64,000 nt of DNA from Promethearchaeota archaeon. GTDB taxonomy: Archaea; Asgardarchaeota; Lokiarchaeia; Sigyniarchaeales; SOKP01. The position numbers were made by a program, and so were the translations under genes. The notes below the pieces were generated by a model. It saw only the letters and a list, made by a program, of their open reading frames with translations. It did not search any database and had not been told where the DNA came from. This document shows, piece by piece, positions 1,361 to 63,302 of the stretch. Numbering within the stretch: the stretch's first letter is position 1; every line of letters begins with the position of its first letter. The stretch is from contig JBHLPW010000013.1 in assembly GCA_048939015.1 (NCBI GenBank), positions 20,607 through 84,606 of the forward strand. The letters run 5' to 3'.

Positions 1361-2418
1361 CAACTCACCAATATTTAGAAATTGATGGATCTCTTGGAGA
1401 AGGAGGAGGTGCGATTGTACGCATTGGAGCAGGATTTTCAATATTATTCAAACGTCCAATTCGAATAAAAAATATTAGAGCTAATCGACCGAAGCCAGGA
1501 CTAAGAATGCAACACTTCATGGGATTAAAAACCTTATCTGAATTAACTAATAGTGAATTATCTAATTGTAATGTTGGAACTCAAGAAATAATACTAAATC
1601 CAGGGCAAACAATAAAAAACTATATTCAAGTTGAAATTAAAACTGCTGGGAATATTGGATTATTACTCCAGCCTATTCAAATTGCTTGTTTGGGTTTGAC
1701 TTCACCTGATAATATTGAAATTACTATAAATGGGGGAGGTACTTTTGGTAAATGGGCTCCCGGGCTTAATTATCTCGAAGAAGTTACCTACAAAATTTTT
1801 AAAAATCATGGTTTTAGAATTGATCTTGATATCCAAAAGCACGGTTTTTACCCCAGAGGAGGCGCTCTAATAAAATGCATTTTGCATTCTCCAAAAAATA
1901 AGTTAATACCACTATCTTTAACAGAATTAGGAAATATCGATTTAATTCAAGGTAAAATTATTTGTACCTCTCAATTGAAACAAAAAAAAGTAAGTGAAAG
2001 AATAAAAGAATCAGCTGAAAATCAACTTAGGAAAGAATTACAATTAGATGTTAACATCAAATTTAAATACATTAAAGCATTGAGTCCCGGAGTGGGTCTC
2101 TATTTATGGGCAGATTCTGAAACTGGGGCTTGTATTTCTTCTGGTACAATACTTGGTGAACGTAACATAACTTCTGAACACCTCGGTAAAATAGCTGCTA
2201 ATGAACTTATTAAATATATTAAAAAGGAGATTCCTGTTGATAATTATCTAAGCGATCAATTAATTCCTTTTATGGGTTTCGTAAATGAAGCATCACGAAT
2301 AAAAGTACTTGAACTTACAAACCATACTAGAACTAATCTAGAATTAATGAGACTATTTTTAAAAAGAAACTATAAAATCTTAAATAAGAAAAACTATTGT
2401 ATAATAGAACTTCAATAA
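1357..2418 (+). CDS. rtcA: RNA 3'-terminal phosphate cyclase
   Basis: IDGSLGEGGG, IRANRPKPGL..QH, GFYPRGG, DQLIPF, catalytic TNHTRTN. Confidence 0.95.
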   Translation: MTTHQYLEIDGSLGEGGGAIVRIGAGFSILFKRPIRIKNIRANRPKPGLRMQHFMGLKTLSELTNSELSNCNVGTQEIILNPGQTIKNYIQVEIKTAGNIGLLLQPIQIACLGLTSPDNIEITINGGGTFGKWAPGLNYLEEVTYKIFKNHGFRIDLDIQKHGFYPRGGALIKCILHSPKNKLIPLSLTELGNIDLIQGKIICTSQLKQKKVSERIKESAENQLRKELQLDVNIKFKYIKALSPGVGLYLWADSETGACISSGTILGERNITSEHLGKIAANELIKYIKKEIPVDNYLSDQLIPFMGFVNEASRIKVLELTNHTRTNLELMRLFLKRNYKILNKKNYCIIELQ

Positions 2419-5287: not shown

Positions 5288-5560
5288 ATGAGTGTATATG
5301 ATATTGGAAGACTTTGCGTAAAAACTATGGGAAGAGAAGCGGGTTACTTATGTGTAATCGTTGATATTATTGATAAAAACTATCTGCTTATTGATGGATT
5401 AAATGTACGAAGAAGAAGAGTAAATTATAAACATATTGAACCAATAGCAGAAACTATTGAAATTAAGAAGGGCGCAACACACGAACAAGTAGAAACTGCC
5501 ATAAAAAAGGCTAAATTAGAGAAAAAAATGAATGAAGTTATCTCTGTCCCAATTAAATAG
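5288..5560 (+). CDS. rpl14e: 50S ribosomal protein L14e
   Basis: IGRLCVKTMGREAG..CVIVDIIDKNYLLIDG..VRRRRVNYKHIEP; ATG at 5288 preferred over TTG 5273. Confidence 0.95.
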   Translation: MSVYDIGRLCVKTMGREAGYLCVIVDIIDKNYLLIDGLNVRRRRVNYKHIEPIAETIEIKKGATHEQVETAIKKAKLEKKMNEVISVPIK

Positions 5561-5611
5561 CTTTAATATAGAGTAAAAAATAAAAATTTAATTTATTGTT
5601 ATTTTTTTTAA

Positions 5612-5741
5612 GCAACGGTTGCCTAGCCCGGTACGGCGCCGGCTTGGAGCGGAAATTTCCCAGAAAGCCGGTGTGGGTATCCACTCGGGGGTTCAAGTAA
5701 TAAGAATTGGCTTCTTATTAGAATAAATCCCTCCCGTTGCG
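5612..5741 (+). tRNA. tRNA-Ser(GGA) with two BHB introns: 5650-5665 at 37/38 and 5697-5726 at 58/59
   Basis: Acceptor GCAACGG/CCGTTGC + discriminator G; anticodon stem CCGGC/GCCGG with loop TT-GGA-G|A after splicing; long variable arm; T arm GGGGG-TTCAA|AT-CCCTC after splicing; both inserts form bulge-helix-bulge motifs. Confidence 0.93.
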
Positions 5742-5763
5742 TATTTTCCTAAAATTGATAAAA

Positions 5764-6366
5764 TTAAATATCAGGAAATTCTAGGGCTTTTGCTTTTTGC
5801 CCTGCAAACATTCCTCCCATTCCTCCTGAAGCTTGGGACTGAAGTTTTAGCAATCTTTGGGTCAATGTATTAATACCAAAAGAGCAAAGGAAATACCAAG
5901 CTGTAAAATTTATCCAAATTGGACCAGCACTGATAAAATTCCCTATTAATGGAATATCATTAGCATGCATAGGACTAAGGGCGACTGCAGCTCCTCTAAA
6001 TAACGTATTTATAAGACTAAAGATTACTATCATAGGAATAAACGTTATACAAGTTGGTTTCATCCTTTGAAGGGCCATTCTTTGTTGAGATTTCTTTATC
6101 ATCGCGTCTTTACGTTCCCATCTTTTTCGAGCTTTTCTATATCGATCAGGATCTACTTCCGCTAGGTCAATAATCTTTTGCTTTTCTTCTTCATGAGCTT
6201 TCATTTGTGTCTGTTTACGGTTTATTTCTTCTGTATCTACTAACCACCTTGTCAATAAAGTACTTATTGTAGCTGTGGTTAATGATAATAGTAGCACAAA
6301 TAGCATTGATCCCGGAGGAGTTGTAATCCAATCAAGAAATGCATTTTGATAAATTAAAGACAGCAT
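5764..6366 (-). CDS. EMC3/TMCO1/DUF106 (Oxa1 superfamily) membrane insertase
   Basis: TM, coiled coil, MKPTCITFIP, TM, WYFLCSF; directly downstream of secY. Confidence 0.88.
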   Translation of the reverse strand: MLSLIYQNAFLDWITTPPGSMLFVLLLSLTTATISTLLTRWLVDTEEINRKQTQMKAHEEEKQKIIDLAEVDPDRYRKARKRWERKDAMIKKSQQRMALQRMKPTCITFIPMIVIFSLINTLFRGAAVALSPMHANDIPLIGNFISAGPIWINFTAWYFLCSFGINTLTQRLLKLQSQASGGMGGMFAGQKAKALEFPDI

Positions 6367-34155: not shown

Positions 34156-35586
34156 TTAGGAATCAATTTTTAATTCATTTTTCCTTTTCTTATGTCGCTC
34201 TTTTTTACTTAGAACAAGACTTCTTAATTCATTTACAGTATAATCCTTTAAAGAAACAATCATTCTTATGATTGCTCGGGTAATTGGTTCATAGCTTTCT
34301 TGATGAATTTTATCTAAGGTATCAGCTGGATCAAAGAGATATGGTGGTGCTGCCAAAAATGATATGAAGGGAATTCCTTCAGGATGATAAAAACTACCAT
34401 CAGTAGGAGGACTATCTCTTCCAGGGGGAAATCCATCTGGAGGTAGTAAAATGGAGCGTTCTAAGTTCTCTTTTATAATTGCATCTTCAACAATTTCTTC
34501 AAGTGGTAATATTCGACTTACAAACCACCATCTAACTGTTGGATCATCTAAAGGTATAAGCTTTCCATTTTCACTCTTTACATCTCGAGCCACATGTTCT
34601 AAATGAATTCCTACAACAACTTTTTCTAAAAACTCCTTATTTTGATCTACAAAAGAAACCGCGCCTTTTGCTCCAGCCATATGAGCACAATTCATCAAAA
34701 AAAGGAGATTGAAGGGACGTTGGTCTTCAGGAATTTGAGACCAATACTTTGCTTGGGCAAGCACTAACGCCATACCAGAAGCATCCTCTACTGCTGAGTT
34801 CCAAGGCCCATCGTGGTGAGTACCTATAACAATCCATTCATCAGATGTCCCATATAAACAACCTAAAATATTATGTGAAGTAACTTTAGAAATAGTAGCT
34901 TTATATGACAAATTTGCTTTCACAGCACCATTTTCAATAAATTCTAAAATTTTTTTCCCATTATTTCGACTGACATAAACACCAGAAATTTTCCTTTCAA
35001 CTGCATCGTAAGGAACATAATATTTTTCAGTTTCCCAAGGATAACCAGAAAGAATTCCAATAAAACCAACAATAATGTCTTTCAATGGGGGCTCTAAAAA
35101 TTTTCGTCTTTTATAATCAAATGGAACGGTTTGCTCTAAATTTTCAAATTCATTTTTTGGATCATAAAATCTATCTATTCCAGATATACCCTTTAGTCCT
35201 TGAACCGGAAACTTAAGAAGATTTAATTCTGAAACTATTATAGCTCCCGATTGTGGTGGTTCTCTTGATTCTAAACATAATTCCGCTTCAAGATCCTCTA
35301 CTGGTTTAGTATACGGTACTGGGAAACAAGGAATGTCTAAAACCAATCTAGGATTGTCAACCATCCAAATCTTAAGTTTAGCATTATAAGTTTCCCATTT
35401 TTTTACTGGAACGGGGTTTAATGAAATATTTTGTAACCCTATTGCTTTAAATCGCTCTTCCACCCAAGCTTCTATTTTATAATCTGCAGGATACCCTGGG
35501 CGACGAATACCTTGGTTAAATATTTCTGTAGTCCAAGCCATCATCTCAGCCATAGTTGGTACAAATTCTTTCTTAAGTGAACTCAT
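34156..35586 (-). CDS. M28 family metallopeptidase
   Basis: IGTHHDG, AVEDASG, HLEH, PTDG. Confidence 0.8.
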   Translation of the reverse strand: MSSLKKEFVPTMAEMMAWTTEIFNQGIRRPGYPADYKIEAWVEERFKAIGLQNISLNPVPVKKWETYNAKLKIWMVDNPRLVLDIPCFPVPYTKPVEDLEAELCLESREPPQSGAIIVSELNLLKFPVQGLKGISGIDRFYDPKNEFENLEQTVPFDYKRRKFLEPPLKDIIVGFIGILSGYPWETEKYYVPYDAVERKISGVYVSRNNGKKILEFIENGAVKANLSYKATISKVTSHNILGCLYGTSDEWIVIGTHHDGPWNSAVEDASGMALVLAQAKYWSQIPEDQRPFNLLFLMNCAHMAGAKGAVSFVDQNKEFLEKVVVGIHLEHVARDVKSENGKLIPLDDPTVRWWFVSRILPLEEIVEDAIIKENLERSILLPPDGFPPGRDSPPTDGSFYHPEGIPFISFLAAPPYLFDPADTLDKIHQESYEPITRAIIRMIVSLKDYTVNELRSLVLSKKERHKKRKNELKIDS

Positions 35587-35705
35587 AATTATTACTTTTA
35601 TTAAGAATAATTAAATGTTGTAAATGCAAAATGATTTTATATAAATTAAATCTCGTTGTTTAATAATATAATCTTGGTTAAAAATAAAAAAAAATAAGAA
35701 AAAAA

Positions 35706-35905
35706 TTAGTCTTTTTTGAAAAGGTTTCCACATTCTCCACACTTCATGTTCTTAGAATATACAGGAGTGCCTTGCTTCAGCGATTGACTGAAATAGTTCA
35801 ACCTATACTGTAATAGAGCACACTGTTCTTATCTGCTTCTTCATGAAGTTTGCGTGGATTCTCATTACCACATTTTGGACATTTTACTCTTTTATATTCT
35901 GTCAT
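35706..35905 (-). CDS. 56-aa Zn-ribbon protein encoded in two exons, join(35805-35905, 35706-35775)
   Basis: Spliced product MTEYKRVKCPKCGNENPRKLHEEADKNSVLYYSMQGTPVYSKNMKCGECGNLFKKD*; matches the CPACG..EDKS.I..YPRVYGKKYRCGRCG ribbon at the end of 62406-63302. Confidence 0.82.
35776..35804 (-). other. Candidate 29-nt bulge-helix-bulge intron in mRNA
   Basis: Minus strand CAGT-AT|A-GGTTGA..TCAATC-GCTG-AA|G: 4-bp helix CAGU/GCUG flanked by two 3-nt bulges; cutting after nt 2 of each bulge gives AGT ATG CAA in frame. Confidence 0.8.
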
Positions 35906-35962
35906 TAACCTTAACTCTGTAAAAATTGTATTAAATAGTTAGTAGAGTTTATAAATTTAAAT

Positions 35963-36493
35963 TTAGGTTTTTAAATGGGTTTTTATTATTATCTCTCGAA
36001 CAATACTATCAATGGTTTTATTAGTTGTATCAATTGTAATTTCTGCTGCTGCCTCATAATAAGGTTTTCTAAAACTTAAAACATTCTCAATTTCTTTTTT
36101 TAAATCTTCTTTATCAATAATCGGGCGTGTTTCTTTCCCATTTTTTAATGCTCTTTCGTATATTTCATTTATTGTGGCATTTAGTAACACTATATAACAA
36201 TTTTTTTTTAAGTTTTTAACATTTTTTGTATCTAAAACCACACCCCCTCCACATGAAATAACCACTTTATTATATTTAGAAATTTTCTCACACACTGAAA
36301 TTTCATATTTCCTAAACTTTTCTTCACCTTCTTCAGCAAAAATTTCAGGAATTGATTTTCCAATTTCTTGAATAATTTCTTGATCTGTTTCTATAAATCT
36401 ATAATCTTTATCGAGGTGTTTTATTAATGTTTTGCCTATTGTAGTTTTTCCAGTAGCCATAAAACCAATAAGCGCAATGGAATCTTTTGCCAT
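35963..36493 (-). CDS. aroK: Shikimate kinase (AroK type)
   Basis: IGFMATGKTT, IFAEEGEEKFR, SCGGG, RPII, RKPYY. Confidence 0.93.
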   Translation of the reverse strand: MAKDSIALIGFMATGKTTIGKTLIKHLDKDYRFIETDQEIIQEIGKSIPEIFAEEGEEKFRKYEISVCEKISKYNKVVISCGGGVVLDTKNVKNLKKNCYIVLLNATINEIYERALKNGKETRPIIDKEDLKKEIENVLSFRKPYYEAAAEITIDTTNKTIDSIVREIIIKTHLKT

Positions 36494-36548
36494 AATATAT
36501 TACAACCATTGATTTCTATATAATCATACCTCTATCTTTTCTCAGAGA

Positions 36549-37103
36549 TTATTCTTGTGAAAATCCATGTTTCTCTAGAAGTCCTTTTTTAATTTCAAGG
36601 TAATTACCAGCAATATAAGTAGGAAAATCAAATTTTTCTGGATCCAAAGCCTCATTTTTAACATATTTAGGATTAGTATGTGTAGCAACAACCCGACCGA
36701 AGTAACAGACATGTGATCCAAGTTCTATTCTTTTTATTACCTTACATTCCATATTCCAAGGAAATTCTTTAACCATTGGAACTTTTACTACTGAAGCTTC
36801 TTCTTTTGTTAAACCCAATTTACTCCATTTATTAATGTCCCTTCCTGAACGCGTTCCAATATAATCTGTTTCTCTCAATTGTTCTATAGTTGGATAATTA
36901 ATAACAAATTCATTATGTTTTTCAATTAAGTGATACGAATGTCTTTTTGGTTGAATAGAAACTGCAATGATTGGAGGATCATAACACACTTTTCCTACAT
37001 AAGCCAATGTTATTAAATTTGCTTCTTCCCCTAATCCTACAGAAACCACTGCTGTAGGCATTGGAAATGTTGAGATCTTTGGACTTAAATCCACTTTTTT
37101 CAT
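36549..37103 (-). CDS. Flavin reductase family protein
   Basis: FPMP, EFVIN, GTRSGRD, MECKV, GSH. Confidence 0.9.
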   Translation of the reverse strand: MKKVDLSPKISTFPMPTAVVSVGLGEEANLITLAYVGKVCYDPPIIAVSIQPKRHSYHLIEKHNEFVINYPTIEQLRETDYIGTRSGRDINKWSKLGLTKEEASVVKVPMVKEFPWNMECKVIKRIELGSHVCYFGRVVATHTNPKYVKNEALDPEKFDFPTYIAGNYLEIKKGLLEKHGFSQE

Positions 37104-62405: not shown

Positions 62406-63302
62406 ATGATCGAAGATACACATAAAATAAAAAACGAGACCGATCTTAAAAATCAATATAGTAGAGCTCTAGACTTGTTAGAATCAGAGATATTGGATAA
62501 ATTAATGCCTCTTCTGTTAAAAGGTAAATCGAAAAAGGAAAAAAAAAAGCAGCTTGAAATTATTGGGAACATTCTCAATGGACCTAAACACCAAATATAT
62601 ATGAATGCTCTAGAAAATGGATTAATAGATGAAAAAGATTTAGAAGCTATAGCAAATTGGACTGAATGTCGTTTTACTCTCTTATTTCCAAACAAACAAC
62701 CCAAGAAATTTGAAAAACTGAACATGCATCTTCTAAAAAAGGATCTTATAGAAATAGCTAATTTGAGAAAAAAAGTGAAAACTTTTTCACCAACTTTAGA
62801 CGGCTATTTAGAAATGCTTTATAAAATCATTAAGCGTGAATATATTAGGCGATGCGAAGCATATCCTCTTAAATTAATAGAGAACGACCTAATTAAAACA
62901 GCTAAAATATTTAAACTAAAAAGAAAAATGCTTATCGAATTATTGATGAAAAAGTACTCAGACATACTCATTATGAACCAGGAATTAAAAGGTGATGAAT
63001 CTCATAAATATCAACTGCTTGTATCAATTCCATCATTAGAGAAAAAAATTCGTACATTTAATGCTGGTATTGATATCTTGTCTGAATCTAAAATGCAAGA
63101 TATGGCGGTTCCTGACTATACATTCAGAAATATACTCATTTCTAAAATGGAAGAAATAATAAGGTGTCCTGCCTGTGGAGAAGAAAGTATGAATGTTATT
63201 CAAGTAGTTGAAGACAAATCAAATATAATCCTTGATTATCCACGCGTTTATGGGAAGAAATATCGATGTGGACGATGTGGACAAGTATGGCGAGAAAAAT
63301 AG
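62406..63302 (+). CDS. Hypothetical protein with C-terminal Zn ribbon
   Basis: CPACG...EDKS...YPRVYGKKYRCGRCG. Confidence 0.75.
   Translation: MIEDTHKIKNETDLKNQYSRALDLLESEILDKLMPLLLKGKSKKEKKKQLEIIGNILNGPKHQIYMNALENGLIDEKDLEAIANWTECRFTLLFPNKQPKKFEKLNMHLLKKDLIEIANLRKKVKTFSPTLDGYLEMLYKIIKREYIRRCEAYPLKLIENDLIKTAKIFKLKRKMLIELLMKKYSDILIMNQELKGDESHKYQLLVSIPSLEKKIRTFNAGIDILSESKMQDMAVPDYTFRNILISKMEEIIRCPACGEESMNVIQVVEDKSNIILDYPRVYGKKYRCGRCGQVWREK

Follow-up and report, generated by a model that had tools for sequence, protein, structure and literature searches.

A candidate tRNA-type (bulge-helix-bulge) intron within a small zinc-ribbon gene of a Promethearchaeota archaeon

A gene for a small zinc-ribbon protein on the minus strand of contig JBHLPW010000013.1 of a Promethearchaeota archaeon (GenBank assembly GCA_048939015.1) is interrupted by 29 nt at positions 35804-35776 of the window, by which is meant the whole stretch of 64,000 nucleotides that was analysed. 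The sequence evidence makes it very probable that these 29 nt are an archaeal bulge-helix-bulge (BHB) intron within a protein-coding sequence, spliced by the machinery that otherwise processes tRNA. This interpretation as a tRNA-type mRNA intron had been put forward in a preliminary description of the same DNA and draws support from the junctions of orthologues, from covariation, from restoration of the reading frame, from the enzymes encoded in the genome and from the cut rule of a tRNA-Ser in the window. Taken together, these lines of evidence suggest a well-supported case for rare mRNA splicing in archaea.

The coordinates and frames of the preliminary description proved exact when re-read from the sequence, and the gene is laid out as follows.

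35948-35963, minus strand: A/T-rich, TATA-like stretch between the aroK stop and the start of the ribbon gene, putative own promoter
35905-35805, minus strand: exon 1, from the ATG through the AU of the split Met-34 codon, with the first CxxC knuckle and the 3' end ...UAC AGU AU (...LYYS)
35804-35776, minus strand: candidate BHB intron, 29 nt, phase 2, length 3n+2, excision of which restores the frame and the invariant Met
35775-35706, minus strand: exon 2, starting G CAA GGC (the G completes AUG), reading QGTPVY..., with the second CxxC knuckle and a TAA stop
35680-35705, minus strand: T-rich tract directly 3' of the exon 2 stop, putative terminator of the archaeal type

Read without splicing, the frame of exon 1 meets a UGA two codons into the insert, and the product is limited to a 35-aa peptide with one zinc knuckle. 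The frame of exon 2 is offset by 3n+2 from that of exon 1 and resumes at 35774. Joining 35905-35805 to 35775-35706 gives a 56-aa CxxC..CxxC protein with two zinc knuckles, and the cut rule proposed beforehand (AU|A, AA|G), which removes 35776-35804, rebuilds the AUG codon, the frame and this protein. The splice junction is unambiguous, since an excision of 29 nt moved by one base either way leaves Lys or Ile instead of Met at the junction. Exon 1 aligns with residues 1-34 of intron-free orthologues. The predicted peptides are a junction-spanning tryptic peptide, ...YYSMQGTPVYSK, for the spliced form and the C-terminus ...YYSIG for read-through. In relatives a similar T-run is located 3' of exon 2, not of exon 1; a bacterial-type promoter and terminator scan of the ribbon gene was uninformative. 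Directly upstream of the ribbon gene lie genes for a P-loop (AroK-type) shikimate kinase and a flavin reductase (35963-37103, minus strand), and the order flavin reductase, aroK, ribbon gene is kept in intron-bearing and intron-free relatives and also on metagenome contigs. Downstream, an M28-like peptidase (34156-35586) adjoins the ribbon gene; among the loci examined this arrangement is peculiar to this genome.

The 56-aa spliced product is modelled by AlphaFold as a two-stranded ribbon (pLDDT 81), in which the intron position falls in the turn between the two strands. It matches no Pfam or NCBIfam family above the cut-off of that family, and a comparison of the model with the PDB gave no significant match, the best being generic zinc ribbons with E values of 0.3 or higher. 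The label "ribosomal protein S27AE" carried by some intact relatives in the JGI data is unsupported, with an NCBIfam score of 19 bits against a cut-off of 54. The preliminary description had also noted a likeness to the ribbon at the end of the open reading frame 62406-63302, which was recovered by tblastn with E = 1e-5, and had expected that gene callers would miss such genes; public calls indeed truncate the ribbon gene to 42-53 aa, reading into the intron. The entries of the public collection concerned by this truncation or by the S27AE label are P0043, P0045, P0046, P0047, P0048 and P0050-P0052.

The minimum free energy (MFE) fold of 35830-35755 reproduces the helices and bulges that had been claimed for the RNA: CAGU pairs with GCUG over 4 bp, followed by the 5' bulge AUA, the hairpin GGUUGA/UCAAUC and the outer helix GUGCU/GGCAC. 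The elements of the motif are the following.

35817-35821, minus strand: outer exon helix, 5' strand GUGCU, paired with 35767-35771 in the MFE fold
35807-35810, minus strand: central helix, 5' strand CAGU (exon), paired with 35778-35781 in the MFE fold
35804-35806, minus strand: 5' bulge AUA, predicted cut AU|A between 35805 and 35804
35782-35803, minus strand: intron hairpin GGUUGA ... UCAAUC with a 10-nt loop (MFE fold)
35778-35781, minus strand: central helix, 3' strand GCUG (intron), from the MFE fold and the 35-species alignment
35775-35777, minus strand: 3' bulge AAG, predicted cut AA|G between 35776 and 35775
35767-35771, minus strand: outer exon helix, 3' strand GGCAC, from the MFE fold and the 35-species alignment

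In its 5' half the modelled motif is canonical, and on the exon side it is relaxed, a qualifier that applies to the 3' side of the structure as first described. In the MFE fold the 3' cut site is placed inside a 6x6 internal loop; a clean 3-nt AAG bulge requires a weak exon helix that consists of an A.C mismatch and then two pairs, with a 3-nt asymmetry. Because of this weak exon-side helix and the position of the 3' site in an internal loop, cleavage would depend on an enzyme of broad specificity. The folding energy of the single sequence is ordinary (z = -1.8), and the evidence beyond chance appears to be comparative rather than energetic.

For this comparison the spliced product was searched against 41 related genomes, and a profile of intron-free orthologues was then searched against all 54 species of the genus. 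The gene is interrupted at the predicted junction in 35 species, continuous in 13 and interrupted elsewhere in one; the remaining five are without a detected orthologue. In the 35 interrupted species the match stops at the predicted junction and restarts about 29 nt further on in another frame, and at the nucleotide level all 35 genes contain a 29-nt insert at the same position. In three other families of the order the gene is continuous in every sampled genome. It had been set beforehand, both as a test and as a ground for refutation, that orthologues without the intron should read YYS-M-QG across the junction, and this is what they read: Met-Gln-Gly stands at the junction in all 90 distinct intron-free copies from Promethearchaeota, within the pattern LY[YF]S-M-QG, in which M, Q and G never vary.

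The exon strand of the central helix, CAGU, includes the codon for Ser-33 (window positions 35807-35809), which is AGY in 35 of 35 intron-bearing genes and TCN in 57 of the 90 intron-free copies. This codon usage is suggestive only and may reflect either structural constraint or shared ancestry, the species being related. As all 35 copies of the intron are alike, it may have a single origin within the genus. A tree of the neighbouring gene product AroK is too poorly resolved to order gain against loss in the intron-free congeners; two of these, genomes G002 and G018, retain the exon sequence ...ACAGUAUGCAAGGCAC and are possible cases of precise intron loss.

A BHB that covaries at the same site had likewise been predicted, and compensatory changes are present across the 35 species. 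Pairs were counted on the ungapped alignment for the structure of the preliminary description plus two extra exon pairs, 17 pairs in all. Paired bases occupy 96.8% of pair positions in the 35 species, in comparison to 23-53% in controls in which the 3' partners were slid by 1-3 columns. Changes on both sides occur in 9 of the 17 pairs. The central helix is paired at 99.3% of positions, with U.G replaced by C-G or U-A and one C-G by U-A, and the intron hairpin exhibits compensatory changes at six of six scored pairs. The middle pair of the outer exon helix is changed from G-C to A-U in seven species and to U-A in one, switches that leave the encoded Val and Gly unchanged. None of 500 shuffles attains the observed value on any pairing measure, a count that is not a probability because the species are related; neither the controls with slid partners nor the tally of distinct pair types is affected by relatedness. 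Since the 35 species are kin, species counts overstate independence, and the independent evidence lies in the compensatory changes and in separate introns at other sites. In the 5' bulge the first two bases (AU) are invariant and the third is A, G or U; in the 3' bulge the last base G is invariant and the middle base is A, G or C. The Met codon requires AU and G to be constant, and it is the bulge bases inside the intron that vary.

In the post-splice frame exon 2 has a mean dN of 0.10 and a dS above 1 (14 single-intron species), and the remaining frames contain stops; the values for exon 1 in 14 species are 0.08 and 1.26. By these values exon 2 is under purifying selection when read in the post-splice frame, from which it would follow that exon 2 is translated in a frame that can be reached only if 3n+2 nt are removed.

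The genome encodes the enzymes that such a reaction would need.

C72:13341-13937: EndA paralogue
C35:9790-10410: EndA paralogue
C105:33786-35093: RtcB, single copy, 570 bits

The two EndA paralogues, of 198 and 206 aa, are 35% identical and score above the Pfam and NCBIfam cut-offs. One copy retains the His of the catalytic stretch and the second is without it, and because of this missing His the genome probably possesses a two-subunit (alpha/beta) EndA of broad specificity. A tRNA of the window serves as comparator.

5612-5741, plus strand: tRNA-Ser(GGA) with a 16-nt intron at 37/38 and a 30-nt intron in the T-loop

Unspliced, this gene is detected in the window neither by ARAGORN nor by Rfam. 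ARAGORN recognizes it, as an 84-nt tRNA, once the BHB rule has been used to take out the two inserts, and not before; the clean 84-nt tRNA-Ser(GGA) bears out the earlier claim that one cut rule fits both of its introns. The 30-nt T-loop intron and the 29-nt ribbon intron are alike in size class (29-32 nt), in the 4-bp exon-intron helix, the 3-nt bulges, the hairpin and the cut rule, and are presumably cut by the same enzymes. They differ in that the ribbon intron resides in an mRNA, with no tRNA body to position the enzyme, and is unrelated in sequence to the tRNA-Ser intron. A blastn search found no second copy of the 29-nt intron in its own genome, where it is thus not a repeated element.

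The features by which an archaeal BHB intron is recognized are accordingly present at the ribbon gene: a central helix of 4 bp and, on either strand, a bulge of 3 nt, in relaxed form; helices maintained by compensatory change; an RNA that, joined after cuts at the second bulge base, is functional as far as frame and invariant Met can tell; and a genome that encodes a splicing endonuclease and an RtcB-type ligase. We infer that cleavage and ligation occur in the cell and that these are the enzymes responsible. The ribbon gene would be transcribed as a single short mRNA, in which exon CAGU would pair with intron GCUG, leaving a 3-nt bulge on each side, and the intron hairpin would close the motif. 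EndA, probably the two-subunit enzyme of broad specificity, would cut after the second base of each bulge; RtcB would then ligate the exons, creating the AUG codon, shifting the frame and allowing translation of the second CxxC knuckle. The excised 29-mer would probably be circularised.

The ribbon gene family contains at least four further intron positions, at least five in total within a gene of about 170 nt, and these are found in unlike lineages. Codons are numbered below by the 56-aa spliced product.

Genome G015, codon for Tyr-40: second intron, 31 nt, central helix CAGU/GCUG, spliced reading ...PVYSRSVKC...
Genome G016 (contig L013, 1501-1727, plus strand), codon 42, Lys, AA|A: second intron, 30 nt, central helix of three pairs and one A.G
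Genome G057 (= L103/L141) and contigs L082, L101, L143 and L144, codon 41, Lys, AA|A: introns of 30-33 nt, central helix UUAU or GUAC with its partner
Contig L142, another Promethearchaeota lineage without the first intron, codon 43: intron of 31 nt, central helix CUAG/CUAG
Contig L025 (= L096), about 1378-1611, minus strand: two-intron gene of G015 with two BHB introns 46 nt apart

With the cut placed behind the second base of the bulge, each of these genes regains its frame and reads like its orthologues; in G016 an alternative cut 3 nt upstream restores the frame too, and the exact junction of this second intron is uncertain. All carriers of codon-41 introns, that is G057 and four contigs of other Promethearchaeota, are without the first intron. 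The codon-41 inserts of L082 and L101 have 30 nt, a length divisible by three, yet contain stop codons.

The two introns of G015 are identical at 24 of 29 aligned bases, a similarity that is equalled in score by none of 5000 shuffles, and they are unrelated to the other introns of the ribbon gene family. The alignment identifies the second intron as a paralogue of the first. Both come after the exon hexamer CAGUAU, and the sister species G013 has the first intron only. The second intron has the appearance of a recent copy that entered a similar site close by, for which reverse splicing or a duplication at the DNA level might have been the route.

Apart from splicing, the interruption might be overcome by translational recoding, in which a programmed frameshift or a ribosome hop would carry translation over the insert on unspliced RNA. 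The frames of exon 1 and exon 2 do overlap inside the insert in most species, where one shift could fuse them, and cbf5 introns were formerly mistaken for frameshifts (PMC2738675). A frameshift would, however, add about ten residues encoded by the insert instead of the invariant Met, and the orthologues are without any insert-derived residues. In addition, the insert covaries as RNA pairs without conservation of amino acids, and neither a slippery site nor a matching pair of take-off and landing codons can be seen in the sequence. For the 30-nt codon-41 inserts of L082 and L101, in frame and with stops, a frameshift is no rescue and the BHB rule works; moreover, five different sites all fit the geometry of a 4-bp helix with 3-nt bulges. 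Recoding is on this evidence very unlikely. Slightly less credit still is given to a split gene, in which each of two small peptides would carry half a ribbon and the halves perhaps assemble later. A TTG inside the insert of this genome opens a 31-aa open reading frame that covers exon 2, but that start is missing in most other species, in G007 and G003, for instance, the exon 2 frame has none of the codons ATG, GTG and TTG within the insert, several inserts begin this frame with a stop, and a ribosome-binding context is lacking. Two peptides would also leave unexplained the BHB geometry and the rebuilding of the invariant Met from AU and G.

That the gene is a decaying pseudogene, killed by an ancestral 29-nt insertion and persisting as remnants, is as improbable as the split gene. 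The truncated products of 42-44 aa given by gene callers and the five genomes of the genus without any detected orthologue would agree with decay. Against it stand the two exons, intact in 35 of 35 species without extra stops or indels, a dN/dS of about 0.1 or less for exon 2 in the post-splice frame, the helices maintained through compensatory changes and the promoter-like and T-rich terminator-like flanks that have been kept. An error of assembly or sequencing deserves hardly any credence. It is true that the assembly, reconstructed from a metagenome, is a draft in 125 contigs and is estimated to be 6.5% contaminated; but genomes of 35 species, each assembled independently, have this insert at an identical site, and the copies differ in sequence and show covariation. 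Self-splicing introns of group I or group II were rejected as candidates, the insert being only 29 nt long and a ribozyme core comprising hundreds of nucleotides. Rfam reports no intron family in the window, either at the gathering threshold or at E values up to 1.

Among known organisms, Asgard archaea stand closest to eukaryotes, and introns are unusually abundant in their tRNA genes. Full-text searches of the literature found no description of BHB introns in Asgard protein genes, and a preprint of 2026 on tRNA introns in Asgard archaea leaves mRNAs aside. The documented splicing of archaeal coding sequences by the tRNA machinery is confined to cbf5 in Crenarchaeota (PMC2738675; stated explicitly in PMC7714728), the BHB intron of which is described by Watanabe 2002 and Yokobori 2009 (PMC2738675). 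The introns of cbf5 and of the ribbon gene are alike in several respects: each is a short BHB in a coding sequence that splits the codon of a conserved residue and has its cuts between the second and third bulge bases, each has a relaxed motif needing a hetero-oligomeric EndA, each is patchily distributed among close relatives, which implies gain or loss, and in each case the gene is mis-annotated. Membership of the cbf5 intron family, which calls for the cbf5 gene, a catalytic Asp codon and a homologous intron, was rejected; the host here is a zinc-ribbon gene. Unlike cbf5, this host encodes a 56-aa zinc ribbon rather than a pseudouridine synthase and belongs to the Promethearchaeota, an Asgard group of Loki type, the introns are non-homologous, and the ribbon family has at least five intron positions in a gene of about 170 nt and one duplicated intron. 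Splicing of cbf5 was demonstrated by cDNA, whereas splicing of the ribbon intron is predicted from DNA sequence. In Haloferax volcanii the gene HVO_1309 contains a BHB intron in the 5' UTR, with in vivo and in vitro support (PMC7714728). It shares with the ribbon gene an mRNA as substrate of the splicing endonuclease, which for the ribbon gene is predicted, and differs in that its element is located in the leader and leaves the reading frame uninterrupted.

Transposition and duplication of tRNA introns, with paralogous BHB introns at different sites, were reportedly described for Thermoproteales by Fujishima and colleagues around 2010. The G015 introns resemble these as paralogous BHB introns that imply spread within a genome, and differ in that a single protein-coding gene contains both copies, 46 nt from each other and each after CAGUAU. 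In eukaryotes, the mRNAs of HAC1 and XBP1 contain a short frame-shifting intron (26 nt in XBP1) that is removed without the spliceosome; the kinase-RNase Ire1 cuts at twin 7-nt stem-loops, a tRNA ligase (RTCB in animals) joins the exons, the unspliced mRNA encodes a truncated product and the process is regulated by stress. The preliminary description had seen an echo of this splicing. As an analogy it holds for the type of ligase and for the short frame-shifting intron (29 nt here), and it fails for the endonuclease, which would act on a BHB and not on twin stem-loops.

It is conceivable, if rather doubtful, that tRNA-type introns are still spreading into Asgard mRNAs at the RNA level and that splicing of the ribbon mRNA might serve as an on/off switch of the XBP1 kind instead of being a constitutive repair. 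An excised intron would find a transcript site resembling its exon partner and insert there by reverse splicing, or by cleavage and ligation run in reverse; the product would then be copied back into DNA. The mimic site would be the hexamer CAGUAU, used twice in G015, and the 170-nt gene would in this way have gathered introns at no fewer than five codons.

If spliced as proposed, the ribbon gene is not expressible without endonuclease and ligase, which would establish protein-only splicing of an mRNA in an Asgard lineage. The mechanism suggested is a known one with unusually strong comparative support, and what would be new is the evidence on intron gain, with several positions and one duplication; the recent intron duplication in G015 bears on how such introns are gained. 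The comparative material is unusually clean, with 35 intron-bearing and 13 intron-free congeners and several independent insertion sites. As public annotation truncates or mislabels ribbon genes, proteomes are under-called, and gene finders need a BHB-aware step.

In this genome a strict BHB scan was carried out that asked for a 4-bp central helix, an intron helix of at least 4 bp and a length of 14-65 nt, the intron fusing two open frames. It delivered 50,557 structural candidates, among which in-frame fusions were not commoner than out-of-frame ones at any threshold (73 versus 70 and 66 for lengths of 26-36 nt and at least 40 codons per side), nor did an in-frame excess appear when cases with a downstream start codon were removed. 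The top candidates resemble adjacent genes or antisense frames. Such a scan misses small genes and relaxed motifs, and it is no evidence that the ribbon intron stands alone. The same type of ribbon forms the C-terminus of larger proteins (about 300-360 aa), such as the product of 62406-63302 (plus strand) in the window, and copies of it, including small paralogues, occur elsewhere in this genome (C42:27378-27515, C51, C99 and C88) and throughout the genus; none of them is interrupted.

The public protein collection holds no entry identical to the spliced product. The closest database protein of 56 aa (89% identity) is encoded on metagenome DNA contigs with the same synteny, and hence originates from an intron-free relative and not from a transcript. 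A degenerate pattern of the junction, searched against the JGI metagenome contigs, matched eight records of 1.4-50 kb, all of them with the continuous gene and none a spliced transcript. The eight look like genomic copies rather than transcripts; one of them (L147) was looked at more closely. This contig carries, at 5454-6002 on the plus strand, two intron-free ribbon genes in tandem, separated by about 170 nt.
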